A stretch of DNA of 64,000 nucleotides from Bacteroidia bacterium (GCA_035438985.1 DAORJK010000005.1:47757-111756), one strand, 5' to 3'. Shown: positions 41,977-62,136, numbered from the stretch's first letter. The notes: a model not told the origin generated them from the sequence alone. Made by a program: numbers and translations.

Positions 41977-44109
41977 GTGAGCGAAATCAAAAAAATAACA
42001 CTTGAAGTAGAAGGAATGACCTGTAGCAATTGTGCTGCAACTGTTACCAAAGCGCTTCAAAAAAAAGGGCTACACGATGTCAAGGTTAGTTTTATTGAAA
42101 AGGAAGTTAGCTTTGAGTTAACACCCAGCAACACACTTGATGATATCACATCTAGTATTGGAAAGCTAGGCTATACAGTTGTTCAAACAAAAAAAGATTC
42201 AAACGAACTTCCTCATTTTTCATCATTAGAATTGAAGTTTTATTTTTCGTTGCTTTTTACATTACCCTTGTTTTTATCGATGTGGCTACCTTTTCACTGG
42301 CTGCACAATCCCCTGGTTCAATTAATCTTATGTACACCGGTATTTATTTTAGGTATGCGCCATTTTGGAAAGAGTGCATGGGGATCTGTTAGAATGAAAA
42401 ATCCCAACATGGATGTATTGATTTGTATCGGATCTATTGCATCTTTTGTATATTCTTTGGCTGGAATGTATTTGTATTCGGGAAGTGCACAAATTCATAA
42501 TTTTTTATTTTTTGAAACAACCGCCACTATTATAACCTTGGTTTTGCTTGGTAATTTGATAGAAGATAAATCTGTAAAACAAACAGGATCTGCTATTCGT
42601 GAGTTGGTTGCCATGCGTCCACAAAAGGCAACTATCGTAATTCAAGAAAACGGCATAGAACAATTAAAGGAAGTTAATGTAGCTGATTTATTAAAGTTCG
42701 ATATACTTCAAGTAAATACAGGTGATAAAATAGCTGCAGATGGTAACGTCATTTCAGGTGCAGGGAGTGCTGATGAATCTTTTATTACCGGTGAAAGTAT
42801 CCCGGTTGAAAAAAAGGTCTCTGATAAAGTAATTGGTGGATCTATCTTGGTAAGTGGTCAACTTAGAATAAGAACCACTAAAGTTGGAAAAGAAAGCATC
42901 TTATCTCAACTTATTGATCTGGTTAAAAACGCACAAAACGAAAAACCCCGAATTCAAAAATTTGGTGACAAGGTGAGTGCTATTTTTGTACCCGTGGTAA
43001 TCGCATTATCACTTCTAACCTTTTTATTAGCATATTTTATATTTGAAACAAGTTTGCAGCAGGCATTTTTACAAAGTATAGCAGTACTTGTTGTATCGTG
43101 TCCTTGTGCAATGGGATTAGCTACCCCAACCGCTGTAATGTCCGGAATTGGAAGAGCCGCAAAAAATCAAGTGTTAATTAAAGGAGGAAATACGCTTGAA
43201 GAATTTGCATCAATTAAGACCATTGTTTTTGATAAAACTGGCACATTAACAACCGGAAATTTTACTTTAAAGTTAATACAAATTACCGCAGATGTTTCAG
43301 AACAAAAAGTGAAAGATATTATTTTTTCAATGGAAAGTTTTTCTTCGCATCCTATTGCTAAATCTTTAGTTAGGGAGTTAAAGTCGGAAGCAAAAGTGAT
43401 TCAATTTTCAGAAGTGCAAGAAGAAAAGGGACTTGGAATAAAAGCTATTGACATGAATGGGGATGCTTATTTTATTGGGCATTCGCGTAATATATCGAAT
43501 TCGCAAAGCATTGCACATAATGAATTAGTTGTATTAAAAAACAAGGTTGCCATTGCGAAAGTTACTATTTCAGATGATGTTAAATCAAGTGCTTTAACTT
43601 GTATCACTAAACTAAAACAACTTGGTATTACACCTGTTTTGCTGAGTGGCGATAGTAAAAATAATTGTGAAGAAGTCGCACATAAACTTGGAATTAAAGA
43701 AGTTTATTTTGAACAGAGTCCGGAACAAAAATTAAACTGCATTAAGAAATTAAAGCTGGCAGGACCTATTGCTATGGTAGGTGATGGCATTAATGATGCT
43801 CCTGCATTAAATCTTGCAAACGTTGGTATATCATTGGGTAATGCAACCCAGGTCGCTATTGAATCGGCTCAAATTGTGCTACTTAGAGCAAATCATCTGG
43901 AAGATATTGAATTTGCTTTTCGACTCAGCAAGACCTCATTGTCAACAATTAAACAAAATTTATTTTGGGCCTTTTTTTATAATGTTATAGCTATTCCAAT
44001 TGCAGCGATGGGATTTTTAAACCCAATGCTTGCGGCACTTTCGATGGCATTTTCAGATGTGATGGTAGTGGGTAATTCAATTTGGTTAAAAACAAAAAAA
44101 CTACTCTAA
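41977..44109 (+). CDS. Copper-translocating P1B-type ATPase (GTG start)
   Basis: N-terminal HMA domain with MTCSNC, a CPC motif in the TM helix (VSCPCAMGLATP), DKTGTLT and GDGINDAP. Confidence 0.9.
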   Translation: MSEIKKITLEVEGMTCSNCAATVTKALQKKGLHDVKVSFIEKEVSFELTPSNTLDDITSSIGKLGYTVVQTKKDSNELPHFSSLELKFYFSLLFTLPLFLSMWLPFHWLHNPLVQLILCTPVFILGMRHFGKSAWGSVRMKNPNMDVLICIGSIASFVYSLAGMYLYSGSAQIHNFLFFETTATIITLVLLGNLIEDKSVKQTGSAIRELVAMRPQKATIVIQENGIEQLKEVNVADLLKFDILQVNTGDKIAADGNVISGAGSADESFITGESIPVEKKVSDKVIGGSILVSGQLRIRTTKVGKESILSQLIDLVKNAQNEKPRIQKFGDKVSAIFVPVVIALSLLTFLLAYFIFETSLQQAFLQSIAVLVVSCPCAMGLATPTAVMSGIGRAAKNQVLIKGGNTLEEFASIKTIVFDKTGTLTTGNFTLKLIQITADVSEQKVKDIIFSMESFSSHPIAKSLVRELKSEAKVIQFSEVQEEKGLGIKAIDMNGDAYFIGHSRNISNSQSIAHNELVVLKNKVAIAKVTISDDVKSSALTCITKLKQLGITPVLLSGDSKNNCEEVAHKLGIKEVYFEQSPEQKLNCIKKLKLAGPIAMVGDGINDAPALNLANVGISLGNATQVAIESAQIVLLRANHLEDIEFAFRLSKTSLSTIKQNLFWAFFYNVIAIPIAAMGFLNPMLAALSMAFSDVMVVGNSIWLKTKKLL

Positions 44110-44111
44110 AG

Positions 44112-45902
44112 GTGCCTGTACACTCCTATTATAAAATTCTATTTATTCCAAAATGGTATCCTAACCGAACTAATAAGTTTAGTGGAATATTTATTGAAAA
44201 GCACGCAAAAGCACTTGCAAAGGAATGTCGTGTAGCAGTGTTATATGTTGGCGCCGATGAAAATTTAAAAACAAAATATGAATCGGATGTTCAAAACGAA
44301 AACAACATAACTACTGTTAGAGTATACTATCAAAACAACGACGTTTCTACTTCATTATTTGGAAAAGCGATTAAATTTTACCGCTATTTATTTGCAGCAT
44401 ACTTGGGATTGAAGTGCATTAAGGCTGAATTTGGTAAACCCAATTTGGTGCATGTAAATGTACTAACCCGTCCAGGAATTATTGCATGGTTACTTTATAA
44501 GCTCAATGGTATTCCTTATATAATCAGTGAACATTGGAGCGGATACTTACCGGCCGATGGTTCTTATAAAGGCAGTATTAAAAAAATGCTGACAAGATTA
44601 ATCGTAAAAAATGCGAAAGCTATTACTGCTGTTTCACAAAAGCTTGCAGTATCAATGCAATCACACAAGCTCACAGGTTCCTATACCATTATTCCAAATT
44701 GTATTGAGCTTGAAAAAATACCTAATCGAACTATTTCCGAATTCACAACTGCTGTAATGGTTGGTAATTTATTCGATAAGGAAAAGAATATTTCAGCCGT
44801 AATACATGCTGTTGCCTCATTAAAAACAGCGTTTCCTGATTTTAAACTAACCATTATTGGTGGTGGTGAAGATGAACTTAAATTAAAGCAACTCATTGTT
44901 GACCTTGGAATAACCAATCAAATAATCTTTAAAGGTATTTTGCCACAAATCGAAGTTTATAAAGAATTGTGTGCGGCTTCATTTTTAATTTGCAATAGCA
45001 ATTATGAAACATTTTCAGTTGTAATTGCCGAGGCTCTGGCTTGTGGCACACCTGTTTTAGCAACCCGTTGCGGTGGCCCTGAAGAATTTGTAACGGAGCA
45101 ATTCGGGAAATTAATTCCTTTGCATCAACCGGATGAACTTAAAAATGGAATTGCTTACATGCTGCAACATCATGCTTCTTTTTCGTCACAAAAAATGATG
45201 GAGTATGCACGAACTTCTTTTAATCCGGATACTATAGCACAGCAATTTATTTCAATTTACAATCCATTCATTTCAAAATGGGAAGCTGGCAATACGCGTG
45301 AATTATTATCTATTCCTTACAATTGGAGAGTTCTGGACGTAGGCAGCGGTGATCATCCCAATGAGCGAGCTGATGTTTTACTCGAAAGAGAAATTGAAGC
45401 AACCGAGCATAGATCAGGAGCAAAAGCAGTAATTCCCTTAGGTAAGAAACTTATTTTAGGCGATGCTACAGAAATGCCATTTAGGGATAAAGAATTTGAT
45501 TTTGTAATAGCATCTCACATTGCCGAGCATATTGATGAACCTGAAAAATTTTGCAGTGAATTACAGCGTGTTGCAAAAGCAGGATATATTGAAACTCCGG
45601 GAGCATTTTCAGAATTCATTTTCAATGAGGCATTTCATAAATGGGTAGTAAGCAATAAAAATGGCGTATTAGTGTTTACTGAGAAAACAAAACATACGGT
45701 TTTTTCAGAATGGTTTTACCGTTTGTATTATTTAAATGAAAAACGCAGCGGTCACAAAGCACTCTATTCAAAAGCTAAAGTGCTAATTGCCTTTGTTAAT
45801 TTAATACGTAAAACATGGAAGTATCTTCCAAAGACGTATACTTGTTTTCATTGGCAAACTAGTTTTAAGTATACTGTGATACGAAAATCAACCAATGATT
45901 AA
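44112..45902 (+). CDS. Fusion protein: GT4-family glycosyltransferase (N-terminal) plus class I SAM-dependent methyltransferase (C-terminal). The ORF track starts it at 44082, overlapping the ATPase. The in-frame GTG at 44112 avoids that overlap.
   Basis: GT4 motifs (KILFIP...EALACGTPVLATRCGGPEEF) followed by a methyltransferase motif I (VLDVGSGDHP) and a post-I acidic motif. Confidence 0.7.
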   Translation: MPVHSYYKILFIPKWYPNRTNKFSGIFIEKHAKALAKECRVAVLYVGADENLKTKYESDVQNENNITTVRVYYQNNDVSTSLFGKAIKFYRYLFAAYLGLKCIKAEFGKPNLVHVNVLTRPGIIAWLLYKLNGIPYIISEHWSGYLPADGSYKGSIKKMLTRLIVKNAKAITAVSQKLAVSMQSHKLTGSYTIIPNCIELEKIPNRTISEFTTAVMVGNLFDKEKNISAVIHAVASLKTAFPDFKLTIIGGGEDELKLKQLIVDLGITNQIIFKGILPQIEVYKELCAASFLICNSNYETFSVVIAEALACGTPVLATRCGGPEEFVTEQFGKLIPLHQPDELKNGIAYMLQHHASFSSQKMMEYARTSFNPDTIAQQFISIYNPFISKWEAGNTRELLSIPYNWRVLDVGSGDHPNERADVLLEREIEATEHRSGAKAVIPLGKKLILGDATEMPFRDKEFDFVIASHIAEHIDEPEKFCSELQRVAKAGYIETPGAFSEFIFNEAFHKWVVSNKNGVLVFTEKTKHTVFSEWFYRLYYLNEKRSGHKALYSKAKVLIAFVNLIRKTWKYLPKTYTCFHWQTSFKYTVIRKSTND

Positions 45903-47169
45903 AAGTATTGTAAACACCATAAGTACGCGTTTTTTTACAGCCGTTTTCAATTTTTTGATTCTGCTGCTTACAGCTAATTACCTTGGTGCTGAAGGAAGAG
46001 GACAAATTAGTTTGCTGCTTTCTACTTTAACCATTGTTTTGCTTTTCTCAAGTTTTGTTGGAGGAAACAGTTTAATTTTTTTAACTCCGCGTAAACCTAC
46101 TACCGAGCTCCTTATCATATCCTATTTGTGGGCGGTATTCATCTCAGTGGTTTGTTATTTCACGCTTTACATTACGCATTCTTTTCCCGAATTGCTTAGT
46201 AAACATATAAGTGTACTTGCGTTTATGCTTTCTGTAAATACCATTCATACTTCCTTGTTAATTGGAAAGGAAAAAATTAAAGCTGCTAATTTTATTAATT
46301 TGTTTCAGGTAATAGGTCATTTCTTTTTATTGGCTTTTTGCTTTTTGTTTTTAAGGAGTTTGCATTTCTCAACTTTCATTTATTCCTTGTACCTAACTTA
46401 TGGAATTAGTAGTATGCTTGGAATCTATTTTTTATACCCACTACTAACTAAAAAATTTTCTTTTGGATTTAGAGGAACCTTAAGAATGGCTCTAACAATA
46501 GGTACCATTGCCCAACTTGCAAATATTTTTCAATTTTTAAATTACCGATTAGATGTTTATTTGCTCGATCGATTTGACACGCTTTCTAATCTCGGAATTT
46601 ATAGTTCTTCTGTCTCTATTGCAGAGGCTGCATTGTTGTTTGGAAGCAGTTTCGCTTTAGTTCAATTTTCGAAAATAGCCAATAGTACCAACACTGATCA
46701 ATCGCGTATACTTACAATTAAACTTACCCGATACAGCACCATCCTAACTTTACTGGCTTATTTGCCTTTGTTTGTATTTCCAGATGAGTTTTATACTTTT
46801 TTATTAGGTAAAGATTTCCTTGAGGTAAAGCAGGTGTTGTTTGCATTGTTTCCGGGAATTTTTTTTCTCGGTTCGAGTGTTACCATCAGTCACTTTTTTG
46901 CAGGTATTGGTAATTACAAAATAAATGCTTTAGCTTCCTTTGTTGGATTACTGTTAACCTTTTGTTTAGGTATTATTTTCATTCCCGATTACGGATTTAT
47001 TGCTGCAGCGTGGATTTCAAGTATTTCATATACTGCTAGTACCGGTGTTTTATTGGGCGCATTTATTAAGAACAGCAAGACAAAAATTACAGAGTTGTTT
47101 CCTAGGTTTGAAGATTTAAGTTTTCTACAAAAATCAATACTAAATGTGCGGCATCAGCGGAATCGTTAA
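45895..47169 (+). CDS. Wzx-like polysaccharide flippase (MOP superfamily)
   Basis: About 12 TM helices. Its start overlaps the upstream stop (ATGATTAA). Confidence 0.6.
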   Translation: MIKSIVNTISTRFFTAVFNFLILLLTANYLGAEGRGQISLLLSTLTIVLLFSSFVGGNSLIFLTPRKPTTELLIISYLWAVFISVVCYFTLYITHSFPELLSKHISVLAFMLSVNTIHTSLLIGKEKIKAANFINLFQVIGHFFLLAFCFLFLRSLHFSTFIYSLYLTYGISSMLGIYFLYPLLTKKFSFGFRGTLRMALTIGTIAQLANIFQFLNYRLDVYLLDRFDTLSNLGIYSSSVSIAEAALLFGSSFALVQFSKIANSTNTDQSRILTIKLTRYSTILTLLAYLPLFVFPDEFYTFLLGKDFLEVKQVLFALFPGIFFLGSSVTISHFFAGIGNYKINALASFVGLLLTFCLGIIFIPDYGFIAAAWISSISYTASTGVLLGAFIKNSKTKITELFPRFEDLSFLQKSILNVRHQRNR

Positions 47170-49132
47170 ACTCGACAATTCAGATTTAAATTTGCCTGCG
47201 CTTTTGCAACAGGTTACTAACCGTATAAAGCATCGAGGTCCGGATGGGGAAGGATTTTTTTTTGCAAATGGCAATCATCAAATCGCTGCTTTTGGTGAAG
47301 CAAGCCCCGACCATGTAAAACAAGCCGCTTTCGCTTATTCTCCCAATCAAGCTATTGAAACTGTTTCTAATAATTTTAAACTGGGTTTCGGACATCGACG
47401 ACTTTCAATTTTAGATTTAACTCCTACCGGGCATCAGCCAATGTGCCTTCCCGATAAAAAAAATTGGATCACGTATAACGGTGAAATTTACAATTACATT
47501 GAAATTAGAGAGGAATTAATTGCAAAAGGACACAATTTTCTTACAAGCTCAGATACCGAGGTAATTTTAAAATCCTATGAAGAATGGGGGGTTGATTGCG
47601 TTAAAAAATTTAACGGTATGTGGGCATTCGTAATTTATGATGAAGTCAAACAAAGTTTATTCGGAAGTCGGGATCGATTTGGTGTGAAGCCGCTTTATTA
47701 CATCCACACCAATGCAATTTTTGCTTTTGCTTCCGAACATAAAGCATTACTGCATGATTCACTTATAAAACCTGAAAAAAACTATGCCGCTGTTTTTGAC
47801 TACTTCGTTTTTAGCAAACTGGAAAATGAGGCAGAAGGTATGTTTAAAAATATATTCGAACTGAAACCTGCCTGTAATTTTGAATTTAATTTAACTTCTC
47901 ACCGATTCAAAATCTGGAACTATTATCAGTTGCCTATTTCAACTGGCTACGAAAAATTTTCTCCGAAACGGTTTGAAGAATTAAAAGAACAAACTAAAAA
48001 TTTAGTAAAAGATTCGGTTCGATTGCGTTTACGTTCGGATGTACCGGTTGGGTCTTGCCTGAGTGGGGGTTTGGATAGTTCGAGTATTGTGATGATGATG
48101 CATGAATTATTAAAAGAAGATGCTCAAAAAATTCATCTTTTTACTGCCCGCTTTCATGAGCTTCAACTCGATGAAGGTAAGTGGGCGCAACAAATTGTTG
48201 AAGCTACCAATTCGAATTGGAGTGTTACCTACCCCACAGCAACTGAATTAAAATTAGATTTAGAAAACTTAATGTATGCGCAAGATATACCGATATGGAG
48301 TACCAGTACCTATGCTCAATACAGGGTAATGCAATTGGCCAAATCCGAAGGCGTAAAAGTGCTTTTGGATGGACAAGGAGGAGATGAATTATGGGCAGGT
48401 TATCCGCATCATCAATCAATATATATGCGCGAACTGCTCATGCAAGCTAATTTTACGGAGTCGAAAGCACTTTTGAACAATGCAGGTAAATTTCCTTCCA
48501 CTATTTTTTGGTTCTTAAAACAATATTTTAAACACAGCGGGTTATCGGCATTTCCTAATTTTTTAATTCCTTCAATTTACTCCAACTATTTTTCTCACAT
48601 TCAATTTTTGAACAAAGACTTCTTTAATGATAACAAACATCGATTTGAACTTCATTATAGCAATGTTCCAAAAACCTTAGATGATCTATTGAGGCAAGAG
48701 CTAAACAATACACTTTTAAAAGGGTATCTAAAATGCGAAGATCGTTGTTCAATGTGGCATTCGGTTGAATCGCGAACCCCTTTCGCCGATGATACACGTT
48801 TAATTGAATTAGCATTTGCAACTCCTTCGGTTTATAAAATACATAACGGGGAAAGCAAATATATTTTTCGAAAAGCAATGCAAGGAATAGTTCCTGATGC
48901 TATTTTGCAACGTAAGGATAAGATGGGATACACTACTCCTACGCTATCATGGATAAATGAAATAAAGGAAAGCTTACGCGATGATTTTTCTGAAAATCTT
49001 TCGGATGTTTTGGATTGTAAGCAAATTCATAAACAATATGAAAAATTGTTTTCTGTAAAAAATGGAATCGATAATGGGCAAATATTTAAATTTATAAGTT
49101 ATGCTACCTGGCACAAAATTTTTAAATTGTAA
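47144..49132 (+). CDS. asnB: Asparagine synthase (glutamine-hydrolysing)-like amidotransferase of polysaccharide loci
   Basis: N-terminal MCGISGIV (Ntn Cys2) and the PP-loop SGGLDSS. Confidence 0.85.
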   Translation: MCGISGIVKLDNSDLNLPALLQQVTNRIKHRGPDGEGFFFANGNHQIAAFGEASPDHVKQAAFAYSPNQAIETVSNNFKLGFGHRRLSILDLTPTGHQPMCLPDKKNWITYNGEIYNYIEIREELIAKGHNFLTSSDTEVILKSYEEWGVDCVKKFNGMWAFVIYDEVKQSLFGSRDRFGVKPLYYIHTNAIFAFASEHKALLHDSLIKPEKNYAAVFDYFVFSKLENEAEGMFKNIFELKPACNFEFNLTSHRFKIWNYYQLPISTGYEKFSPKRFEELKEQTKNLVKDSVRLRLRSDVPVGSCLSGGLDSSSIVMMMHELLKEDAQKIHLFTARFHELQLDEGKWAQQIVEATNSNWSVTYPTATELKLDLENLMYAQDIPIWSTSTYAQYRVMQLAKSEGVKVLLDGQGGDELWAGYPHHQSIYMRELLMQANFTESKALLNNAGKFPSTIFWFLKQYFKHSGLSAFPNFLIPSIYSNYFSHIQFLNKDFFNDNKHRFELHYSNVPKTLDDLLRQELNNTLLKGYLKCEDRCSMWHSVESRTPFADDTRLIELAFATPSVYKIHNGESKYIFRKAMQGIVPDAILQRKDKMGYTTPTLSWINEIKESLRDDFSENLSDVLDCKQIHKQYEKLFSVKNGIDNGQIFKFISYATWHKIFKL

Positions 49133-49273: not shown

Positions 49274-51190
49274 ATGAAAAAACAATTACTCATGGTTCTT
49301 GCCATATCTGCTTCTTTAAGCACTTATGCAAAAACACAACCTGCACGAGCTCGTGTAACTGTGGCGCCAAACGCTAAAGCTGTTCCTTTGCGTCAGGCAC
49401 AGGGCGGTATAAATGAAACACCCTTTAATACCAATCCTAGTTTAGGTTTGGTTGCGCCTACAAAAGCTTATCGTGCAAGTAGCACCATCACTGAGCAATC
49501 AATTGGTTTAACTACTTACGATTTGCAAACAAATAGTGCAATTCTGAACCGTTTATTGAAACACAATGACGGAACTATTTCTGCAACTTGGACCATTATT
49601 CCTCCGGGAGGAGCTTCTGCTGCTCGTGGTACTGGTTACAACTATTTTGATGGAACTAGTTGGGGACCTGCACCTGCAGCACGTGTTGAACCTACTCAAC
49701 GTACCGGTTTTACAAACGTAGTGGTTACGCCAAGTGGTCGCGAAATGGTTATTGCTCACTCAAGTACCGCTCCGGGTATGTTAATTACCTATCGTCCTCA
49801 AAAAGGAACTGGTGCATGGACAGAAGATCCTACAGTTTTAGGTGCAGTTGGTACTGATACTTGGGCTAAGGCTATCAATGGTGGTGCAAACGGTGAAACT
49901 GTTCACGCATTATGGAATGCAAACTCAGCTGGAGCAAATGGACAAGATTTTTCAGTGTATTACTCTCGTTCGTTGGATGGTGGTGTTACCTGGCCAATTC
50001 TTCGTACGGTATTAGCTGACTTAGATTCTTCAAAATATCGTGGTTTCGGTGGGGATGCTTATTCAATCGATACTAAAGGCGATACTGTAGTATTTGTAGT
50101 TGGAGACTTCGACACTGATTTAATCTTGATGCGTTCAACTGACAATGGTGTTACTTGGACTTCAACTGTAATTCAACCATTCTTCCAAGCATTGTATGAT
50201 GATGCAACTGATTCTTTTCCTGATTTAGATGGAAATGGAACTTCTGATCGTATGGAAGGATGCTCTGGTGATGCTCATGTAATGATTGATAATTTAGGAA
50301 AAGTTCACGTATGGTGGAGCAATGTATTAATGACTGATACTTCTGCTGCTGACTTATTAGGATACTTCCCTAATTCAATTGATGGTTTATTATACTGGAA
50401 CGATGGTTTCGCTGTTGGTCAAGCTCCTGATACTATTGCTTTTGCTTTAGACGGAATTAACGGTAACGGAACTTTGGATATTCCACAAGCCGGTTTAGGT
50501 GGTGGAAACGGAATGGGTGGATACCGTGGTAGTGTGACACAAATGCCAACTTCCGGTGTAGATGCTAACAACAATATTTACGTTGCTTACCAAACATATT
50601 GCGAAGATTGCGATACAACAGCCTTCAACACAGGTCACAAACATATTTATATGATTGCTTCTTCTAACCAAGGTGCTACTTGGAGTAACCCAACTGATAT
50701 CGATCAAACTCCGGATTTATTAAATCAGGAAGATGTATTTGCTTGTGTTGCTAAAAATGTTGATGCTAACTGTATTCACGTAATTTATCAACGTGATGCT
50801 GCTCCAGGACATTCATTATCTAATAACGCTACTGAAGCAGGATGGAACTCAGCTCCAAGTGAAATTATTTATGCTTGTGTAACCCCTTCAGATATCTTGG
50901 GTGTTAAAGCAGTTAATTCTTCGAAAATTAATTCAGGTTTAAGCCAAAATACTCCGAATCCTGCTGAAGGTAAAACTACCATTAACTACAACGTTGCAGC
51001 AAATGCATCAGTAGTTAGCTTTACTGTTACCGACGTATTAGGAAATGTGGTTTATACTGAAAACAAAGGAACTGTAAATGCCGGTGCATATTCAGTTGTA
51101 TTAGATACTGAAGCTATGAATAGCGGTGTTTATTTCTATACTTTAACAGTTAACAACCAAAAAGAAACCAAAAAGATGATGGTGAAGTAA
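49274..51190 (+). CDS. BNR/Asp-box repeat (sialidase-like beta-propeller) protein with a T9SS C-terminal sorting domain, paralog 1
   Basis: Signal peptide, Asp-boxes (SRSLDGGVTWP, RSTDNGVTWT, SSNQGATWSNP) and a T9SS CTD (GVYFYTLTVNNQKETKKMMVK). Confidence 0.7.
   Translation: MKKQLLMVLAISASLSTYAKTQPARARVTVAPNAKAVPLRQAQGGINETPFNTNPSLGLVAPTKAYRASSTITEQSIGLTTYDLQTNSAILNRLLKHNDGTISATWTIIPPGGASAARGTGYNYFDGTSWGPAPAARVEPTQRTGFTNVVVTPSGREMVIAHSSTAPGMLITYRPQKGTGAWTEDPTVLGAVGTDTWAKAINGGANGETVHALWNANSAGANGQDFSVYYSRSLDGGVTWPILRTVLADLDSSKYRGFGGDAYSIDTKGDTVVFVVGDFDTDLILMRSTDNGVTWTSTVIQPFFQALYDDATDSFPDLDGNGTSDRMEGCSGDAHVMIDNLGKVHVWWSNVLMTDTSAADLLGYFPNSIDGLLYWNDGFAVGQAPDTIAFALDGINGNGTLDIPQAGLGGGNGMGGYRGSVTQMPTSGVDANNNIYVAYQTYCEDCDTTAFNTGHKHIYMIASSNQGATWSNPTDIDQTPDLLNQEDVFACVAKNVDANCIHVIYQRDAAPGHSLSNNATEAGWNSAPSEIIYACVTPSDILGVKAVNSSKINSGLSQNTPNPAEGKTTINYNVAANASVVSFTVTDVLGNVVYTENKGTVNAGAYSVVLDTEAMNSGVYFYTLTVNNQKETKKMMVK
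50420..50805 (+). repeat. 386-nt tract 100 percent identical to 54659-55044 in paralog 3 (recent gene-conversion tract)
   Basis: Confirmed by direct nucleotide comparison. An identical antisense 70-aa ORF appears in the ORF track at both loci. Confidence 0.85.
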
Positions 51191-51211
51191 TTTCATCTCA
51201 GTTTTAAGAAA

Positions 51212-51248
51212 AAATCGGCTGGCTCTTTGAGTCAGCCGATTTTTTTTA
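51212..51248 (+). terminator. Rho-independent terminator (ATCGGCTGGCTCTTTGAGTCAGCCGAT plus T8). It is duplicated after paralog 3.
   Basis: Hairpin plus T-run. Confidence 0.7.
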
Positions 51249-51472
51249 TTCCTAAAAGCTAAATTTTCCCTTCTTATTTTAGGTGGCATAGTGCATCTAA
51301 AACCTTGTGAATTAATTTTCAAACCGATTCAAATAATCTTATCTTTAAACTAGATTTTAAGAAGTAAACGATTTTAATAAAAACAAAACTGCTTTAAGTT
51401 AAGCGGTTTTGATTTGAATTTAGATTAACTTTTAAAGAAGCTGTTTCTACAATTTCATATTCACTTAATTTA

Positions 51473-53383
51473 ATGCCTATGAAAAGAATCTTACTACTTT
51501 TAACGCTAATTAATTTTTGTGTAGTAGCTAGTGCTATGGGTCAAGCGAAGAGTATTCAGATTAACTCAAGCGCTAAATCACAGTCAATTTCGATTTATGA
51601 AACAGATGTATCCATTAGAAACAGAAGTATAAAAAGAAATTTAGCGATAAATTACCCGCATCAATTAAAAACTCCTCAAATCGCAAGTGGGGTTATTGAA
51701 AATTCAATAGGGCTAACTGAATACGATTTGCAAACAAATGGTTCTATTTCGAATCGATTAATAAAGCATAACGACGGCACTATCTCAGCAACATGGACAA
51801 TGCTGCCACCGGGTGGAGCATCATCAAGTCGTGGAACCGGTTACAACTATTTTAATGGTACTACTTGGGCGCCTGCTCCTACTGTGCGTATTGAACCTAC
51901 GAATCGTACAGGATTTACAAATATAGTAGTTACATCAAGCGGTCGAGAAATGGCCATTGCTAGTTCAAGCACAGCCCCTGGTATGTTAATTACTTCTCGT
52001 GCGCAAAAAGGAATCGGATCATGGACTGAAGATGCTACTGTATTAGGTGCTGCAGGAAATGATTCTTGGTCAAAAGCAATTTCAGGTGGTGCAAATGGCG
52101 AAACAGTGCATGCCTTATGGAATGATAACCTTAGTGGCGCGAATGGACAATATTCATCTGTTTACTATTCTCGCTCATTAGATGGTGGCGTAACCTGGCC
52201 AATATTGAGACAAGTACTACCGGAGCTCGATTCAACGCATTATAGAGGATTCGGAGGCGATTCATATTCCATAGATACCCAAGGTGATACAGTGGTATTT
52301 GTTATTGGCAGCTTTACTACTGACCTTGTATTAATGCGCTCAACTGACAATGGAAATACCTGGAATGCAAAAGTTATTCAGCCTTTTTTTAAGTCCTTGT
52401 ATAATGATGCCATAGATTCTTTTCCAGATTTAAATGGTGATTCAAAATCTGATTATATACAAGGTACATCAGGAGATGCTCACGTAATGATTGATAATTT
52501 GGGTATGACTCATGTATGGTGGAGCAATGTATTGTTGAGCGATACTTCTGCTTCAGCGCCAATTAGTTTTTTCCCAAATTCAATCGATGGACTATTATAT
52601 TGGAATGATGGTTTTGCAATAGGACAAGCACCTGACACCATTGCTTATGCGTTAGATGGAGTTAATGGAAATGGGATACTAGACATTCCGGCTATAATTA
52701 CTAGCAATGGTTATGCAAATGGAATGGGTTTTTATCGTGGAAGTATTACACAAATGCCAAGTTCTGGAGTCGACCTTAACAACATTATTTATGTATCATA
52801 TCAGTCATTTTGTGAGGATTGTGATACTTCTGTATGGAATGTTGGACACAAACATGTATACCTAATAAAGTCAACTGATCAAGGAGCAAATTGGTCTACA
52901 CCTGTTGATATAGACGAAACTCAAGACGCAATCTATCAGGAAAATGTATTTGCCTGCTTAGCAAAAAAAGTTGATCCTACCTGTATCCATGTAATTTTTC
53001 AAAGAGATGCGCAACCAGGTACTTTAAATCAAAGTGGTTGGGGAACTACACCAAGTGAAATTGTTTATGCTTGTGTTGATCCCATGTTTGTTGGAATCAA
53101 CAAAGTAAAAGAATCTATTTCATACAATTATTTAAGCCAAAACACTCCAAATCCTGTTGAAGGTAAAACTACCATTAACTACACCATTGCTGCAAATGCA
53201 TCAGTAGTTAGCTTTACTGTTACAGATGTTTTAGGAAAGGTTGTTTATACTGAAAACAAAGGAACTGTAAATGCCGGAACTTATTCATTAGTTTTAGATA
53301 CAGAAGCTATGAATAGCGGTGTTTACTTCTATTCTTTAACAGTTAACAACCAAAAAGAAACCAAAAAAATGATGGTGAAGTAA
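51473..53383 (+). CDS. BNR/Asp-box T9SS cargo protein, paralog 2
   Basis: Same architecture as paralog 1, and the more divergent sequence. Confidence 0.7.
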   Translation: MPMKRILLLLTLINFCVVASAMGQAKSIQINSSAKSQSISIYETDVSIRNRSIKRNLAINYPHQLKTPQIASGVIENSIGLTEYDLQTNGSISNRLIKHNDGTISATWTMLPPGGASSSRGTGYNYFNGTTWAPAPTVRIEPTNRTGFTNIVVTSSGREMAIASSSTAPGMLITSRAQKGIGSWTEDATVLGAAGNDSWSKAISGGANGETVHALWNDNLSGANGQYSSVYYSRSLDGGVTWPILRQVLPELDSTHYRGFGGDSYSIDTQGDTVVFVIGSFTTDLVLMRSTDNGNTWNAKVIQPFFKSLYNDAIDSFPDLNGDSKSDYIQGTSGDAHVMIDNLGMTHVWWSNVLLSDTSASAPISFFPNSIDGLLYWNDGFAIGQAPDTIAYALDGVNGNGILDIPAIITSNGYANGMGFYRGSITQMPSSGVDLNNIIYVSYQSFCEDCDTSVWNVGHKHVYLIKSTDQGANWSTPVDIDETQDAIYQENVFACLAKKVDPTCIHVIFQRDAQPGTLNQSGWGTTPSEIVYACVDPMFVGINKVKESISYNYLSQNTPNPVEGKTTINYTIAANASVVSFTVTDVLGKVVYTENKGTVNAGTYSLVLDTEAMNSGVYFYSLTVNNQKETKKMMVK

Positions 53384-53518
53384 ATTTATCTAAGCTATAA
53401 AAACCGAATCTCTATTTTAATTATAGCTGATTTAAAAGTAAATTACAGGAAGAATCCAATTAAACAACTTTGTTGAAGCTACGAATGAATTTATTTAAAT
53501 AATTATTCAATAAAATTA

Positions 53519-55426
53519 ATGCCTATGAAACAACTTTTACTTATTTCTCTTATTATTTCAGTATTGTTTGTGACTAATGCAAAAGCACAACGTTCACATG
53601 CGCGTGTAAAACTCTCGCCAAATGCTAAAGCAATACCTATACATCAAAAAATGGGGGATTTTAATCAAGCTCCATTAACTGCCAATCCGAGTTTAGGCTT
53701 TGTAAAAAAATCAAATCCATATCGTACAAGCAATGCCGTTATAGAGCAAGCTATTGGATTAACGACTTATGATTTGCAAACAAGTGCCGCTATTTCAAAT
53801 CGCCTTCTAAAACATTCTGATGGAACGATATCCGCATCTTGGATATTGATTCCTCCAGGAAGTAGCTCTTTATTGCGTGGTACAGGCTATAATTATTTTG
53901 ACGGAATCAATTGGGGCCCGATTCCAACCGCTGCTATTGATCCTCTATATCGTACAGGATACCCAAGTTTAGTAGTAACAGCAAGTGGAAAAGAAATGGC
54001 TTTTGCTCATTCCAATACTGCTCCTGGAATAATTAATACTTTTCGTACCCAAAAAGGAACCGGAACTTGGACTTCAACAATAGCTAATACAGGAACTTCG
54101 GGTTGGACAAAGGCTATTAAAGGTGGTAGTAATGGTGAAACAATACATACTTTAAATGCTGCAAATTTTCAAACTTCAGGGCAACAATTTCCACTGTATT
54201 ATTCACGTTCCTTAGATGAAGGAGCTACATGGTTGGTTCAAAATAGTATTTTACCAGATCTTGATTCCTCACATTATCGTGGTTTTGGTGGTGATACTTA
54301 TTCTATAGATACCAAAGGCGATACAGTAGTATTTGTTGTTGGAGACTTCGTTACGGATTTAGTATTGATGCGTTCTAATGACAATGGTGTTACTTGGACT
54401 GCTAAAGTTATACAACCATTCTTTAAAGCTATGTATAACGCTGCAGTAGATTCATTTCCTGATTTAGATGGGAATGGAACTTCTGATAGTATTGTAGGTT
54501 ATTCAGGAGATGCACATGTAATGATAGATAATTTAGGCATGACACATATTTGGTGGAGCAATGTATTACTAATAGATACTTCTGCCAACGATTTATTGAG
54601 ATATTTTCCAAATGCGATGGATGGGCTCTTATACTGGAACGAAGGATTCGCTAATGGTCAAGCTCCTGATACTATTGCTTTTGCTTTAGACGGAATTAAC
54701 GGTAACGGAACTTTGGATATTCCACAAGCCGGTTTAGGTGGTGGAAACGGAATGGGTGGATACCGTGGTAGTGTGACACAAATGCCAACTTCCGGTGTAG
54801 ATGCTAACAACAATATTTACGTTGCTTACCAAACATATTGCGAAGATTGCGATACAACAGCCTTCAACACAGGTCACAAACATATTTATATGATTGCTTC
54901 TTCTAACCAAGGTGCTACTTGGAGTAACCCAACTGATATCGATCAAACTCCGGATTTATTAAATCAGGAAGATGTATTTGCTTGTGTTGCTAAAAATGTT
55001 GATGCTAACTGTATTCACGTAATTTATCAACGTGATGCTGCTCCTGGACATTCATTATCAGCAAATGCAACTGAAGCTGGATGGAACTCTGCTCCTAGTG
55101 AAATTGTTTATGCTTGTGTCGATCCAACAATTATTGGTATCAAAAAAGTAAAAGAATTTAAATCAAGCCATTTTATAAGCCAAAACACTCCAAATCCTGC
55201 TGAAGGTAAAACTACCATTAACTACACCATTGCTGCAAATGCATCAGTAGTTAGCTTTACTGTTACCGATGTATTAGGAAATGTGGTTTATACTGAAAAC
55301 AAAGGAACTGTAAATGCCGGTGCATATTCAGTTGTATTAGATACTGAAGCTATGAATAGCGGTGTTTATTTCTATACTTTGACAGTTAACAACCAAAAAG
55401 AAACCAAAAAAATGATGGTGAAGTAA
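53519..55426 (+). CDS. BNR/Asp-box T9SS cargo protein, paralog 3. The C-terminal half is mosaic and identical to paralog 1.
   Basis: Same architecture as paralogs 1 and 2. Confidence 0.7.
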   Translation: MPMKQLLLISLIISVLFVTNAKAQRSHARVKLSPNAKAIPIHQKMGDFNQAPLTANPSLGFVKKSNPYRTSNAVIEQAIGLTTYDLQTSAAISNRLLKHSDGTISASWILIPPGSSSLLRGTGYNYFDGINWGPIPTAAIDPLYRTGYPSLVVTASGKEMAFAHSNTAPGIINTFRTQKGTGTWTSTIANTGTSGWTKAIKGGSNGETIHTLNAANFQTSGQQFPLYYSRSLDEGATWLVQNSILPDLDSSHYRGFGGDTYSIDTKGDTVVFVVGDFVTDLVLMRSNDNGVTWTAKVIQPFFKAMYNAAVDSFPDLDGNGTSDSIVGYSGDAHVMIDNLGMTHIWWSNVLLIDTSANDLLRYFPNAMDGLLYWNEGFANGQAPDTIAFALDGINGNGTLDIPQAGLGGGNGMGGYRGSVTQMPTSGVDANNNIYVAYQTYCEDCDTTAFNTGHKHIYMIASSNQGATWSNPTDIDQTPDLLNQEDVFACVAKNVDANCIHVIYQRDAAPGHSLSANATEAGWNSAPSEIVYACVDPTIIGIKKVKEFKSSHFISQNTPNPAEGKTTINYTIAANASVVSFTVTDVLGNVVYTENKGTVNAGAYSVVLDTEAMNSGVYFYTLTVNNQKETKKMMVK

Positions 55427-55447
55427 TTTCATCGCAGTTTTAAGAAA

Positions 55448-55483
55448 AAATCGGCTGGCTCTGTGAGTCAGCCGATTTTTTTA
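55448..55483 (+). terminator. Rho-independent terminator, a near-identical copy of 51212-51248
   Basis: Hairpin ATCGGCTGGCTCTGTGAGTCAGCCGAT plus a T-run. Confidence 0.7.
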
Positions 55484-55744
55484 TACGATTAATTCTAACA
55501 ATTTGCCTTTCATTAAACTTCTTTTACTTACATTTTACTACCTTTAAAAATGTAGAACAAAAAAAATTATTCTCAGTATAACTAGTTTTAAATTTGTTTC
55601 AGTTATCAATTCAAATTAATTGCAACAATAAATGATTAACTCTGTATTTAATACAGTTGTTTGAAGGCAGGTAGGAATATATTGTCAATCTCAAAATTTG
55701 ACGTAAGTTTGTAACTAAGTGAAACCCGATTAAAGCAAGAAATT

Positions 55745-58165
55745 ATGGAACAAGAGAAAGTATCGGAAAAACAAGATTTTTCGTTCGAAAAATTCAAAGA
55801 ATCGGTATTGTCTGATTTTAGAATTGCCAACGAAAGTCGTGAAGCAAGTTTAATGGGCCGCCGTGAAGTACTTACCGGTAAAGCAAAATTTGGAATTTTT
55901 GGAGATGGTAAAGAAGTAGCACAACTTGCTATGGCAAGAGCCTTTAAGCCCGGAGATTTTAGAGCCGGATACTACCGCGATCAAACCTTTATGATGGCTA
56001 GCGGACTACTAAGCATTCAGGAATTTTTTGCTCAGTTGTATGCGCATCCGGATGCAGAAGCTGAGCCATCCTCAGCAGGTAGAAGCATGAACGGTCATTA
56101 TGCTACTCGTTTCTTGGACGCTTCCGGTAATTGGAAAGACTTAACCAAAACAAAAAATTCATCTTCCGACATATCTCCTACCGCCGGTCAAATGCCACGA
56201 CTATTAGGTATGGCTCAAGCTTCGGCTTTTTACCGAAATAATCCTGAATTAAAACATCCGGATTTTTCTAAGTTTTCAGTTAATGGCAACGAAGTAGCTT
56301 TCGGAACAATCGGAGATGCTAGTACTTCAGAAGGTTTATTTTGGGAAACAATTAATGCAGCAGGAGTTTTGCAAGTACCCATGCTTATTTCGGTATGGGA
56401 TGATGGACATGGAATATCGGTTCCTAAAAAATACCAAACCACCAAAGAAAGCATTTCTGAAATATTGAAAGGTTTTCAACGTGATGAAACCGGTGCCGGC
56501 TACGAAATATTTAAAGTTAAAGGCTGGGATTATGTTGCTTTGGTTGAAACATATCAGCGTGCAGCTGATTTGTGCCGCGAAAAACATGTTCCGGTATTGG
56601 TACATGTGGAAGAAATGACTCAGCCTCAAGGCCACAGTACAAGCGGTTCGCACGAACGTTATAAATCGAAAGAACGATTGCAATGGGAAGCTGATTTTGA
56701 TTGCATAAAAAAAATGCGTGAATGGATTTTAGCTTCTGCCGTAGCTACCGAGGAGGAAGTTGTAGCAATTGAAGAACAAGCTAAAAAAACTACACGCGAT
56801 CAAAAAAATAAAGCCTGGTTGGCGTTTAACTCGCCTATTAAAGAAGAACTGCAACAAGCCATGCAAATGATTGATGCAATTGCAGCAGAAAGTACGAATG
56901 CACCTTTTGTTGCTAAAATCAAGGATGAATTGGTAAGTGTTGTTGATCCGGTTAGACGTGATATACTTGAAAGTTGCAAACGAATTTTACGCATGGTGCG
57001 AAACGAATCCATTCATTCGAAAAAAGCACTTATTAATTTTCTGCATCAATCAAAAATTAGTAATGCCGAACGCTATAATTCTTATCTCTACAGCGAAAGT
57101 AAATTTGCGGTAAAACACCTTACTTCAATTCCGGTGCGTTATGATGAAGATAAGGTTGTTGATGGACGTGAAGTGTTGCGTGATAATTTTGACGCCTTGT
57201 TAGGTAAATATAAATCATTGGTAATTTTTGGTGAGGATGCAGGAAAAATTGGAGGTGTTAATCAGGGATTAGAAGGTTTGCAAAAGAAATACGGAGAAAT
57301 CCGTGTGTTCGATACCGGTATTCGTGAAGCAACTATTTTAGGACAAGCCATTGGTTTAGCACTACGTGGATTGCGTCCCATTGCTGAAATTCAATACTTA
57401 GATTATTTATTGTACGCCGTTCAAATTATGAGCGACGATTTAGCAACTCTCCAATACCGCACCAAAGGTGGACAAAAAGCTCCGGTAATAATTCGTACAC
57501 GTGGTCATCGTTTTGAAGGAATTTGGCACAGTGGCTCCCCCATGGGAATGATACTAAATGCATTGAGAGGTATACACATTTGTGTTCCACGAAATATGAC
57601 ACAGGCTGCTGCATTCTACAATTTACTGATGCAGGGAGATGAGCCGGCTCTAGTAATTGAACCGCTTATGTGCTACCGCATGAAGGAAAAAATGCCATCC
57701 AATCATGGTGAGTTCATGTTGAAATTAGGTGCCCCTGAAATTTTGAAATCCGGAAATGATGTTACAATTGTAACCTATGGATATAATTGTCACCTTGCTT
57801 TAGAAGCCTCAAAAATGCTAGGCGAATGTGGTATTGATTGTGAAATTATAGATATACAAACATTGCTGCCTTTCGATTTAAATCACAGCATTGTTGATTC
57901 CATCAAGAAAACAAACCGTGTAATTTTCTTTGATGAAGATGTAAGTGGTGGAGCCACCGGTTTTATGATGCAAAAAGTGTTGGAAGAACAAGGAGCATAC
58001 AAGTATTTAGATGCCTCTCCTCGAACATTGTCAGCTAAAGATCATCGTCCACCTTATGGTTCAGATGGCAACTATTTTTCGAAACCTAGTGCCGATGATT
58101 TGTTTGATGCAGTTTATGAATTGATGCAGGAATCAAATCCAATACAGTTTCCCGGAATTTACTAA
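55745..58165 (+). CDS. Fused E1 alpha/beta subunit of a 2-oxoacid dehydrogenase (transketolase-like)
   Basis: 806 aa, with an E1-alpha TPP-binding region followed by an E1-beta region. Confidence 0.85.
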   Translation: MEQEKVSEKQDFSFEKFKESVLSDFRIANESREASLMGRREVLTGKAKFGIFGDGKEVAQLAMARAFKPGDFRAGYYRDQTFMMASGLLSIQEFFAQLYAHPDAEAEPSSAGRSMNGHYATRFLDASGNWKDLTKTKNSSSDISPTAGQMPRLLGMAQASAFYRNNPELKHPDFSKFSVNGNEVAFGTIGDASTSEGLFWETINAAGVLQVPMLISVWDDGHGISVPKKYQTTKESISEILKGFQRDETGAGYEIFKVKGWDYVALVETYQRAADLCREKHVPVLVHVEEMTQPQGHSTSGSHERYKSKERLQWEADFDCIKKMREWILASAVATEEEVVAIEEQAKKTTRDQKNKAWLAFNSPIKEELQQAMQMIDAIAAESTNAPFVAKIKDELVSVVDPVRRDILESCKRILRMVRNESIHSKKALINFLHQSKISNAERYNSYLYSESKFAVKHLTSIPVRYDEDKVVDGREVLRDNFDALLGKYKSLVIFGEDAGKIGGVNQGLEGLQKKYGEIRVFDTGIREATILGQAIGLALRGLRPIAEIQYLDYLLYAVQIMSDDLATLQYRTKGGQKAPVIIRTRGHRFEGIWHSGSPMGMILNALRGIHICVPRNMTQAAAFYNLLMQGDEPALVIEPLMCYRMKEKMPSNHGEFMLKLGAPEILKSGNDVTIVTYGYNCHLALEASKMLGECGIDCEIIDIQTLLPFDLNHSIVDSIKKTNRVIFFDEDVSGGATGFMMQKVLEEQGAYKYLDASPRTLSAKDHRPPYGSDGNYFSKPSADDLFDAVYELMQESNPIQFPGIY

Positions 58166-58187
58166 AAACTATTTTCATGCAATAACG

Positions 58188-58778
58188 ATGAAAATAGGCT
58201 TGTTTTTCGGATCCTTTAATCCAGTTCACATTGGACATTTGGTAATCGCCAATTACATGGCACAATATACCGATTTACAAAAGGTATGGTTGGTAATTTC
58301 ACCGCACAATCCACTGAAGGAGAAAAGTAGTTTACTCGATGATAAACAACGTTTGGCTTTGGTTAAGATAGCCATCGAAAACAACAGTAAATTAAAAGCC
58401 AGCGATATAGAATTTAAATTGCCTCAACCCTCCTACACCATTACAACCTTGGTACATTTGAAGGAAAAATATCCTGAACATGAATTTGCTTTAATTATGG
58501 GAAGTGATAATTTAAGCACCTTTCATAAATGGAAAAATTATGAGGAGATTTTGAAGTATCATACGCTTTATATTTATCCTCGTCCGAAACACAGTGGTGA
58601 AGCTTATAAGCAACATTCTCAGGTAAAATTCGTTGATGCACCCGTTATGGAAATCTCATCAACCTTTATTCGACAAGCAATAGCCGACAAGAAAGATGTT
58701 CGTTACTTACTCCCCGATAACGTTTACGAATACGTGAAAGAAATGCACTTTTATAAAAAGAGAAAACAGCTTATTTAA
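58188..58778 (+). CDS. nadD: Nicotinate-nucleotide adenylyltransferase
   Basis: GLFFGSFNPVHIGH nucleotidyltransferase motif. Confidence 0.85.
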   Translation: MKIGLFFGSFNPVHIGHLVIANYMAQYTDLQKVWLVISPHNPLKEKSSLLDDKQRLALVKIAIENNSKLKASDIEFKLPQPSYTITTLVHLKEKYPEHEFALIMGSDNLSTFHKWKNYEEILKYHTLYIYPRPKHSGEAYKQHSQVKFVDAPVMEISSTFIRQAIADKKDVRYLLPDNVYEYVKEMHFYKKRKQLI

Positions 58779-59391
58779 AATCTTCCATTAAAAGTTGCTC
58801 CTTGCAAAATTCATATTCATGAACTAAGTGATTAGAGCACACGATCAATAATCGATTTTTTGCATAGTTATGAATCAAATGAGAGTACCATTCAATTCCC
58901 TTTTTATCGAGGTTGGAGGTTGGTTCATCAAGCAAGACCATACGTGTATTGCTCAGCAAAGCTAGCGCTAATCGTACACGCTGCTTCATGCCACTCGAAT
59001 AATATTTTAATTCTTTGTCTTTCGATCGTTCCAGCCCAATAATTTGAATCATTTCAGAAGTGCTTAAGCCATTCAAAAAAGGCTTAAAATGTGCCTGGAA
59101 TTGAATTATTTCTGTGAGTGTATACTCTTCGATTAATTCAAGATAAGGTGCAGCAAAACTGATTTGATGAAATATTTGTTCAGCTGCAATACTCGTTTGA
59201 TTCAAGAAATAGTTAATCTTACCTTCAGAAGGAAGTTGATTTCCTGCAATAACTTGTAATAATGTTGATTTACCGGAGCCATTTGCGCCAAGTATCGCAT
59301 AACTAGTATCTGAATTTAATTCGCAGTTTAAATTTCTGAAAATCCAATCACGGTTATATCGTTTACCTAGTTTTTCGAGAGTAATTTGCAT
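58771..59391 (-). CDS. ABC transporter ATP-binding protein (small, 206 aa)
   Basis: Walker A GANGSGKST, signature YSSGMKQR and Walker B LLDEP. Confidence 0.75.
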   Translation of the reverse strand: MQITLEKLGKRYNRDWIFRNLNCELNSDTSYAILGANGSGKSTLLQVIAGNQLPSEGKINYFLNQTSIAAEQIFHQISFAAPYLELIEEYTLTEIIQFQAHFKPFLNGLSTSEMIQIIGLERSKDKELKYYSSGMKQRVRLALALLSNTRMVLLDEPTSNLDKKGIEWYSHLIHNYAKNRLLIVCSNHLVHEYEFCKEQLLMEDFK

Positions 59392-59416
59392 TCTTTTCCT
59401 TGGCTCTTCTTGGGAT

Positions 59417-61620: not shown

Positions 61621-61845
61621 AGGAAGAAAAATTCATTTCAGTTAACTATGCATTAACTAAAATAATGAAAGGCAAATATAAGGAAGTATCTGAATGTTTT
61701 TTTTGAAAAGCCTTTAATAAATACTTATTCAAGTATTAAAGAACCATGCTTGTTGAAGGCTTGATTATGAAGGATTTTAGTAGTTTAAACTTTAGTTAAA
61801 ATTCAAACTACCGCTACTTGACAAGCGATATAGTTAATAAAACTT

Positions 61846-62136
61846 TTACTTGGTTGGCTTAGGTTTTAAAGCATTCAATTCTAACCAAGAGCCTCCGGCA
61901 AATGTATTGCCAACACCTTGTTGAGAAAGGAAGATATGTGCATGACGGCAATCATTTCCAGATCCGCAACATAATACAAGAGGTTTGCTCATTTTTTTTA
62001 ATTCTTCCAACTTGGCGGGAATATCTTTTAATGGAATATTTAACGAGTCGGGAATGTGTCCTTTTTGAAATTCAGCTGTTGGCCGCACATCCACTATCGT
62101 GTGTCCTGGAGATTTTAAAATTTCTTTAAGTTCCAT
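61846..62136 (-). CDS. Rhodanese-fold protein with an extended CX5R (Cdc25/arsenate-reductase-like) active-site loop. It is a paralog of the gene at 8395-8685.
   Basis: VLCCGSGNDCRHAH loop. The overall sequence aligns with the CX4R paralog. Confidence 0.65.
   Translation of the reverse strand: MELKEILKSPGHTIVDVRPTAEFQKGHIPDSLNIPLKDIPAKLEELKKMSKPLVLCCGSGNDCRHAHIFLSQQGVGNTFAGGSWLELNALKPKPTK

Follow-up and report, generated by a model that had tools for sequence, protein, structure and literature searches.

Here, we describe a tandem array of three genes for predicted exported beta-propeller proteins in a Bacteroidia bacterium, in which part of the first gene has recently been copied into the third. 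The window, i.e., the whole stretch of DNA that was analyzed, is 64,000 nucleotides (nt) long; it belongs to a contig of 240 kb in a metagenome-assembled genome (MAG) produced by a third party. The three paralogous open reading frames (ORFs) all lie on the + strand, and direct-repeat analysis sees them as three copies of one unit at a spacing of ~2.0–2.2 kb. The first, g1 (49274..51190), encodes 638 aa with a signal peptide (by inspection), a propeller body of ~475 aa (residues ~71–545), a linker, and a type A C-terminal domain (CTD) of the type IX secretion system (T9SS). The second, g2 (51473..53383, 636 aa), is the most divergent paralog and its high identity to the other two is confined to the CTD; the third, g3 (53519..55426), encodes 635 aa. 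The deposited proteins are HRH02561.1 (g1) to HRH02563.1, and HRH02562.1 equals g2 except for the start codon chosen. In a codon alignment the identities are 0.695 (nucleotide) and 0.67 (amino acid) for g1-g2, 0.794 and 0.76 for g1-g3, and 0.687 and 0.63 for g2-g3, which agrees with the overall identity of 60 to 85 percent given in an earlier note on this DNA. At the start codon of g2 there is a stretch of 43 nt (51458..51500, +; repeat family D4) that is 79% identical to 53504-53546 at g3, and the g2 and g3 proteins both start with MPMK.

All three proteins carry the T9SS sorting domain at their extreme C-terminus, with 41.2–42.6 bits for Por_Secre_tail (PF18962; cut-off 27; g1 42.6) and 42.4–43.7 bits for TIGR04183 (cut-off 23; g1 43.5), and the family profile also matches the solved CTD structures 8glj and 8glk. 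Other CTD-bearing ORFs in the window (25855-29436 and 40256-41668) suggest that the host is a T9SS organism. By inspection, the N-termini combine an MKK or MPMK n-region with a hydrophobic core and with sites that resemble A-x-A (TYA|K, AMG|Q, AKA|Q), and the predicted model has an N-terminal helix at residues 2–17. In the body, no Pfam or NCBIfam model reaches its threshold for the trio: BNR_2 (PF13088) stays at 19.9–25.9 bits against a cut-off of 31.4, and the BNR repeat at 17–20 against 27. Asp-boxes are nevertheless present. With SxDxGxTW as the canonical pattern, g1 has SLDGGVTW (233–240) and STDNGVTW (288–295), and a degenerate SSNQGATW (463–470); at the core of the boxes, S233, G237, S288, and G292 do not vary among 48 family sequences. 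E157, H162, R174, D282, D339, H345, D393, D430, H457, E486, and D508 are likewise invariant in the family. The earlier description of the products as proteins of about 636 aa with signal peptide, Asp-box propeller, and T9SS CTD is thus borne out for length, CTD, and Asp-boxes, the signal peptide being recognized by eye.

g1 and g3 are exactly identical over 390 nt, i.e., 50416..50805 in g1 (+ strand, codons ~381–511, the last propeller blades) and 54655..55044 in g3 (+ strand). The perfect 386-nt identity reported before (50420-50805 and 54659-55044; 386/386) lies inside this match. The longest identical g1/g3 run in 2000 shuffles of the alignment columns was 59 nt; g1 and g3 are also concordant at 123 consecutive sites polymorphic in the trio, compared with at most 20 in 5000 shuffles. 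Within the tract 55 of the 56 fourfold-degenerate sites are identical, against 39–55% in the other body segments, and dS is 0.012 against 0.8–1.65 elsewhere. Since silent sites are identical, constraint at the protein level cannot explain the tract. Beyond the tract the identity falls to 0.63–0.72 (alignment nt 1576–1665).

The direction and timing of the copying can be read from relatives. A 185-kb contig of a related species (GCA_016717585.1, hereafter L083), 87.8% identical over 19 kb of the neighborhood, has a syntenic triplet h1-h2-h3 whose genes are 0.88–0.90 identical overall to their orthologs in the window. The identity of g1 to h1 is 0.86–0.98 throughout the tract. In contrast, g3 is 0.93–0.99 identical to h3 over its first 780 nt, drops to 0.66–0.83 over nt 781–1440, and then recovers, and in the segment where the identity drops the g3-h1 identity equals that of g1-h1. 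Counted within the tract, the differences are 0 for g1-g3, 28 for g1-h1, 71 for g1-h3, and 82 for h1-h3. The phylogenetic incongruence is plain, i.e., in the tract g3 groups with g1 and not with its own ortholog h3, while its flanks stay orthologous. The ancestral sequence of gene 3 is preserved in h3, and g1 still has its own sequence, so this comparison shows that g1 overwrote g3, and that it did so after the window lineage split from the ~88%-identical L083 lineage. A g1 ortholog of a near strain, s1, differs from g1 at two tract sites and g3 at none, from which we infer that the last conversion is about as young as, or younger than, the s1 strain split.

The same comparison bears on two simpler explanations, namely that selection alone has kept the segment alike or that g3 is a young duplicate of g1. 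The propeller is indeed under purifying selection. However, the silent sites speak against constraint, and the orthologous segment differs in the sister species (28 sites in h1 and 71–82 sites in h3). As for a young duplicate, over its first 780 nt g3 pairs with its ortholog h3 and not with g1, so gene 3 predates the species split. We attach almost no weight to either explanation.

A further alternative concerns the donor: the g3 segment may stem from gene 1 of another strain, taken up and ectopically recombined into g3. This locus clearly exchanges alleles between lineages. The 5′ piece of g3 (53519-54298) is 93–99% identical to L083 10001-10780 (~780 nt; dS 0.078) in genomes otherwise ~88% identical; over alignment nt 225–765, 84 of 90 fourfold sites agree between g3 and h3, and in the same columns the dS of g1-h1 is 0.57. 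This suggests a recent exchange of the 5′ piece of gene 3 between the window and L083 lineages. In addition, gene 2 has two diverged allele types at aa ~350–480 (g2 52520-52910, alignment nt ~1050–1440; L083 8990-9400) that do not follow the gene 1 tree. One type joins g2 with gene 2 of the contig L086 (0.93–0.97 identical) and the other joins h2 with L088 (0.99–1.0), and the two types are 0.71–0.76 identical to each other, though gene 1 of L086 is 99.8% identical to h1. It is the same segment that was overwritten by g1 in g3. The donor of the divergent middle segment of h2 was not found among the proteins collected for comparison. As to the tract of g3, however, it matches the resident g1 at 390 of 390 positions, in contrast to s1 and h1, which differ at 2 and 28 sites, and for this reason the resident g1 is the most parsimonious donor; an exogenous one is unlikely.

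The copied stretch was probably somewhat longer than the exact match. Immediately 3′ of it (55045..55078, +), g3 equals the g1 orthologs h1 and s1, and only the g1 of the window (50806-50839) has private changes, so the original tract probably ran to about 50838/55078 and g1 was altered later. These private changes include seven clustered substitutions at 50806-50830, where g3, h1, and s1 agree; the cluster could be a micro-conversion from some other source or a mutation cluster at the heteroduplex edge. On the other side, g3 54275..54654 (+) is g1-like in part, with identities of 0.72–0.86 to g1, 0.72–0.92 to h1, and 0.66–0.83 to h3, a pattern that points to an older event or to patchy heteroduplex. 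g3 is therefore composite, with a 5′ part orthologous to h3 and a g1-like middle.

The 3′ ends of the genes carry a second signature of recombination. The CTD-coding segments (g1 50954..51190, g2 53147..53383, g3 55190..55426, all +; Pfam stretch 561–637 in g1) are homogenized across the trio: over 246 nt of CTD-coding sequence every paralog pair is 0.91–0.97 identical, against 0.68–0.79 in the body, as the claim of a CTD nearly identical at the DNA level would have it. Silent sites of the CTD are 77–95% identical among paralogs, compared with ~40% in the body, and 37 of 39 fourfold sites agree between g1 and g3. Over the last 180 nt the paralogs g1 and g3 are 0.99 identical, and the orthologs g1-h1 and g3-h3 0.89–0.93; within L083, h1-h2 reach up to 0.96. 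We also recovered the reported return to near-identity after the diverged stretch (0.63–0.72), with g1 and g3 matching at 228/234 positions across the end of the coding sequence and on through ~57 nt past the stop codon, a segment that is common to g1 and g3, but not g2, and includes a strong hairpin followed by a T-run. The terminator-like hairpin after g1 (51207..51247, +) consists of an A-tract, a 19-bp stem, and a T-tract (−26.8 kcal/mol, z −7.5); the one after g3 (55443..55483, +) is the same with one loop mismatch (−26.7 kcal/mol, z −7.8) and marks the end of the g1/g3 repeat unit. A terminator scan overlooked both, and RNA folding confirmed them. No terminator hairpin lies behind g2. 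A weaker second hairpin, 51384-51411 (−14.5 kcal/mol, z −4.3), with a T-rich run behind it, sits in the 282-nt g1-g2 spacer, ~140 nt past the main g1 terminator and 60 nt ahead of g2.

One could think that the CTD is simply a conserved domain. However, in five other species where this family forms tandem arrays (L005, L008, L010, L017, L070), the CTD shows no excess of identity over the body (e.g., 0.67 versus 0.67, and 0.51 versus 0.55). Because the CTDs there are no more alike than the bodies, the near-identity in the window is lineage-specific concerted evolution and not intrinsic conservation or constraint, which again argues against selection as the cause of the likeness between g1 and g3. 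None of the other T9SS cargo genes in the window has this CTD DNA.

The number of copies also changes among relatives, which have arrays of three, two, or one gene with junctions in the common 3′ ends. In GCA_044229095.1 (L001), whose flanks are 98.3% identical to ours, a single gene takes the place of the array, with the AsnB-like gene on one side and the E1 dehydrogenase gene on the other, and this gene is g1-type up to the CTD and continues into the downstream flank of g3. As it is g1-type that far, the junction must lie in the common CTD/terminator region, and the array fits a deletion by crossover in this block. We had also considered a g1/g3 crossover inside the 390-nt tract, as eight sites just past the tract look g3-like in L001; this candidate was rejected, as a site-by-site table identifies the eight sites as private changes of the g1 in the window (g3 = h1 = s1). 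A two-copy array is found in one lineage, represented by the Joint Genome Institute (JGI) contig L086 and by GCA_053525835.1 (L084), both 94–96% identical to L083; gene 1 is followed there by a gene 2-type gene and then directly by the E1 dehydrogenase gene. Another relative, L085 (86% identical), has at least two copies. The search for copy-number or mosaic variation proposed in the earlier note therefore gave a positive answer, with three, two, and one copies among relatives, although some of the smaller arrays may be assembly collapses.

Assembly deserves care, as the window derives from a third-party MAG and short-read assemblers can merge near-identical repeats; the tract, or even the whole triplet, might have been made by a chimeric path or by the merging of similar paralogs. 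Three other assemblies, 99.9–99.97% identical to the window, repeat the order of g1 3′ end, g2, and g3: L080 (covering 50740-63109), L081 (50405-54742), and L082 (50751-54709). These contigs break off inside the tract copies or close to them, the pattern predicted for a real repeat that exceeds the k-mer; a sister MAG likewise has a 399-aa partial g1 that terminates a 78-kb contig. L081 starts with 11 nt of g3 type joined to the tract of g1, a small graph artefact of the kind this explanation calls for. On the other hand, L080 spans g2, all of g3, and 7 kb of flank, and it has three single-nucleotide polymorphisms of its own in the g3 tract (54799, 54833, 54869); since these are private, reads specific to the g3 copy exist. 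The 185-kb L083 contig, from another species, has the same triplet, and the flanks of the g3 tract are g1-like yet not identical, which an assembler chimera would not give. On this sequence evidence an assembly artefact, which had been named as the outcome that would overturn the finding, is quite unlikely.

Please note that several points do weigh against our reading of this locus as one shaped by recombination. All sequences come from metagenome assemblies, so the exact 100% identity is perhaps slightly inflated by assembler consensus, and the g3 copy of the tract in L080 matches at 387/390 positions and not at 390/390. The JGI contigs and the third-party MAGs may share samples, i.e., the assemblies are maybe independent and the samples maybe not. 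The one-copy and two-copy arrays could partly be collapsed assemblies, and in L084 the frame is disrupted at the junction, the gene 2-type gene being split into ORFs of 297 aa and 350 aa. This disruption corresponds to an offset of ~24 nt relative to L086 at L084 1363-1413, which may mean a true pseudogene with a frameshift or an error of assembly at the repeat.

Taken together, we are fairly confident that this is an old tandem triplet of genes for predicted exported Asp-box propeller proteins reshuffled by ordinary homologous recombination between direct repeats. The proposal of ongoing concerted evolution or recombination in the array is supported by the orthologs in L083, the silent sites, the homogenization of the CTD in this lineage only, and the arrays of three, two, and one copies. 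The comparisons show that a stretch of at least 390 nt of g1, probably ~425 nt, was copied non-reciprocally into g3, and that about the last 240 nt of all three genes, along with the terminator of g1 and g3, stay near-identical within a genome. In the mechanism we propose, the long exact 3′ matches in the CTD and terminator (110, 66, 45, and 35 nt) may serve as recombination substrates, and heteroduplexes seeded there could yield conversion tracts, while unequal crossovers could yield the two-copy and one-copy arrays. RecA-type recombination between misaligned direct repeats, either between sister chromosomes or within the array, is the likely mechanism of both.

Tandem, partly mosaic genes for surface or secreted proteins with a copy number that varies among strains also bring programmed antigenic or phase variation to mind, in which the copies would be cassettes that vary an exposed surface protein, and the replacement of the same segment (aa ~350–480) in both gene 2 and gene 3 could be taken in this sense. 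The array does not behave in this way, however. Each of the three copies is a complete gene that has a start codon, a putative signal peptide, and a CTD, and the ratio of nonsynonymous to synonymous substitution rates (dN/dS) is 0.10–0.24 between orthologs, 0.18–0.27 between paralogs, and 0.05–0.23 in propeller segments; variation is greatest in the low-confidence N-terminal region and in the linker before the CTD. Conversion here raises the likeness of the copies rather than their diversity, and the ORF and repeat analysis of the region revealed no invertase, inverted repeats, repeat tracts, or silent cassettes. Nothing points to a dedicated or programmed recombination system. The purifying selection seen in the sequences is that of working proteins, not of decoys or diversifying antigens, so that the suggestion of variable surface antigens (dN/dS 0.10–0.27 between orthologs and paralogs) finds no support here and programmed variation is very unlikely. 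In the same respects, i.e., three complete ORFs and a low propeller omega, the array is unlike cassette systems of antigenic variation such as pilE/pilS, vls, and tprK.

Interlocus (ectopic) gene conversion and concerted evolution of bacterial paralogs are well known, e.g., from tufA/tufB, rRNA operons, and tandem genes for outer-membrane proteins. The array shares with them the non-reciprocal tract, the homogenized silent sites, the sharp edges, and the deletions or duplications by unequal crossover. The mechanism is nothing new; what differs is the setting, a T9SS cargo family of uncultured Bacteroidia in which the CTD end is the homology block. A further example of interlocus conversion among paralogs is reported for Mycobacterium tuberculosis (PMC12046097). 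Closer in kind are rgpA, kgp, and hagA of Porphyromonas gingivalis, T9SS cargo genes of another member of the Bacteroidota with identical DNA stretches within and between genes and with mosaic alleles that depart from the strain tree; their repeats confound short-read and automated assembly as well (PMC5266723). This work alone turned up in our literature search for gene conversion in T9SS cargo. The P. gingivalis genes are dispersed and exchange modular adhesin domains in a host-associated pathogen, whereas the genes described here are adjacent full-length propeller paralogs of an environmental organism, in which homogenization affects the CTD and a portion of the propeller.

What the proteins do is less clear. 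Profile comparison with sialidases in the PDB covers the Asp-box stretches alone (E 6e-5 to 1e-3), and no sialidase RIP motif is evident in the consensus, which reads ..NRxxxxxDGT... An AlphaFold model has a mean predicted local distance difference test score (pLDDT) of 82 at full length; for the propeller alone the pLDDT is 89.5 and the predicted template modeling score (pTM) 0.92, with ~28 strands, compatible with seven blades. Foldseek comparison of the propeller model, at 10–13% sequence identity throughout, gave template modeling (TM) scores of 0.50–0.60 for GH145 (5MUM, 5MVH, 5MUK), 0.53–0.61 for a “putative neuraminidase” (4IRT), 0.55–0.59 for PL42 (7ESN), mostly 0.43–0.62 for the Photorhabdus propeller lectins PLL and PHL, and 0.50–0.53 for PL25 (5UAS), with several GH33 sialidases lower. 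The best E values (3e-11 to 1e-9) are those of GH145, PL42, and the lectins, and GH33 comes next. The earlier note had GH33, GH74, or sialidase folds in mind, but the predicted fold is, weakly, nearest to the seven-bladed GH145/PL42/PL25 propellers and the propeller lectins, the best matches being seven-bladed and not six-bladed proteins. With GH145 (BT3686, BACINT_00347), PL42 (FoRham1), PL25, PLL/PHL, and GH33 the family shares the beta-propeller fold, and it has Asp-boxes as in the sialidase/BNR superfamily; unlike them, its propeller is ~475 aa long and includes long insertions in which DxNxNGxLD-like loops occur, and it has a type A T9SS CTD attached. Homologs are uniformly ~630–660 aa, come from uncultured Bacteroidota, and are named by the CTD alone. 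Full-length members are annotated automatically as “T9SS type A sorting domain-containing protein” and N-terminal fragments without CTD as “exo-alpha-sialidase” or “sialidase family protein,” so the name given depends on where the contig breaks, and the break is often due to the repeat itself.

The genomic neighborhood gives another hint. The array is located next to polysaccharide genes, as had been described: upstream of g1 and in this order (41977-49132) are a P1B heavy-metal ATPase, a GT4-methyltransferase fusion, a Wzx-type flippase, and an AsnB-like amidotransferase, the last three forming a glycan cassette (44082..49132, +). The four ORFs overlap by 28, 8, and 26 nt, and a spacer of 141 nt with one TAnnTTTG motif separates the AsnB-like gene from g1. 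Among 78 species loci (L002–L079), in which the family protein is only 34–56% identical to g1, 54 have the P1B ATPase and 47 a GT4 upstream on the same strand; between them and the propeller gene lie genes for a methyltransferase (fused to the GT4 or separate), a Wzx/MurJ-type flippase, or, in some cases, a hexapeptide acyltransferase or an AsnB-like amidotransferase. Downstream neighbors are not conserved across these 78 loci. The conserved neighborhood, headed by a metal-exporting ATPase, suggests a link to a glycan pathway, and it helps the proposal of a glycan-processing enzyme, which is a plausible guess. From fold and conserved neighborhood only, the most likely role is glycan binding or cleavage, and the glycan that the exported propellers would bind or cleave may be the product of the adjacent GT4/methyltransferase/flippase cassette. 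Two points count against such a role: the matches are weak (structural TM 0.5–0.6 at 10–13% identity; BNR_2 at best 25.9 bits, below its cut-off of 31.4), and the synteny may have been conserved by inheritance of the gene order rather than by functional coupling.

Some other features of the window can be mentioned here. A sigma-70 promoter scan returned 23 sites against 25.7 expected and is uninformative, the sigma-70 type being wrong for Bacteroidota. The sole match in an Rfam search was a tRNA-His (41738-41812, − strand), and no RNA element is tied to the array. A 1.5-kb segment (40215-41737) adjoins this tRNA gene; the sole domain of its 470-aa ORF (40256-41668) is a weak T9SS CTD. L001 (98% identical) and L085 (86% identical), although colinear elsewhere, lack this segment, and the indel abuts the tRNA gene.

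We consider the finding to be textbook interlocus gene conversion and concerted evolution, i.e., ordinary bacterial genome dynamics. Its value is that of a clean natural example, in which donor, acceptor, relative timing, and copy-number changes are all readable from public assemblies. It indicates that the coding region of a T9SS sorting domain can provide the common homology through which tandem cargo genes go on recombining. Short-read MAGs become fragmented or collapsed by such tracts at these very genes, and surveys of MAGs therefore give unreliable copy numbers for T9SS cargo families. The propeller family is widespread in freshwater and wastewater Bacteroidota, and we put forward, as a possible but doubtful proposal, that these ~640-aa propeller-CTD proteins are an uncharacterized family of T9SS-exported, seven-bladed carbohydrate-active or carbohydrate-binding proteins functionally coupled to the small conserved GT4/methyltransferase/Wzx-MurJ flippase cassette, which has a variable acyl- or amidotransferase and, in dozens of uncultured Bacteroidota species, is placed between the P1B ATPase and propeller genes. 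If this is true, the payoff would be a new glycan-active family tied to a glycosylation cassette: the propeller might process or bind the glycan of the cassette, or need that glycan for its attachment to the surface, and the expansion, contraction, and segment swapping (aa ~350–480) of the array would tune its specificity.

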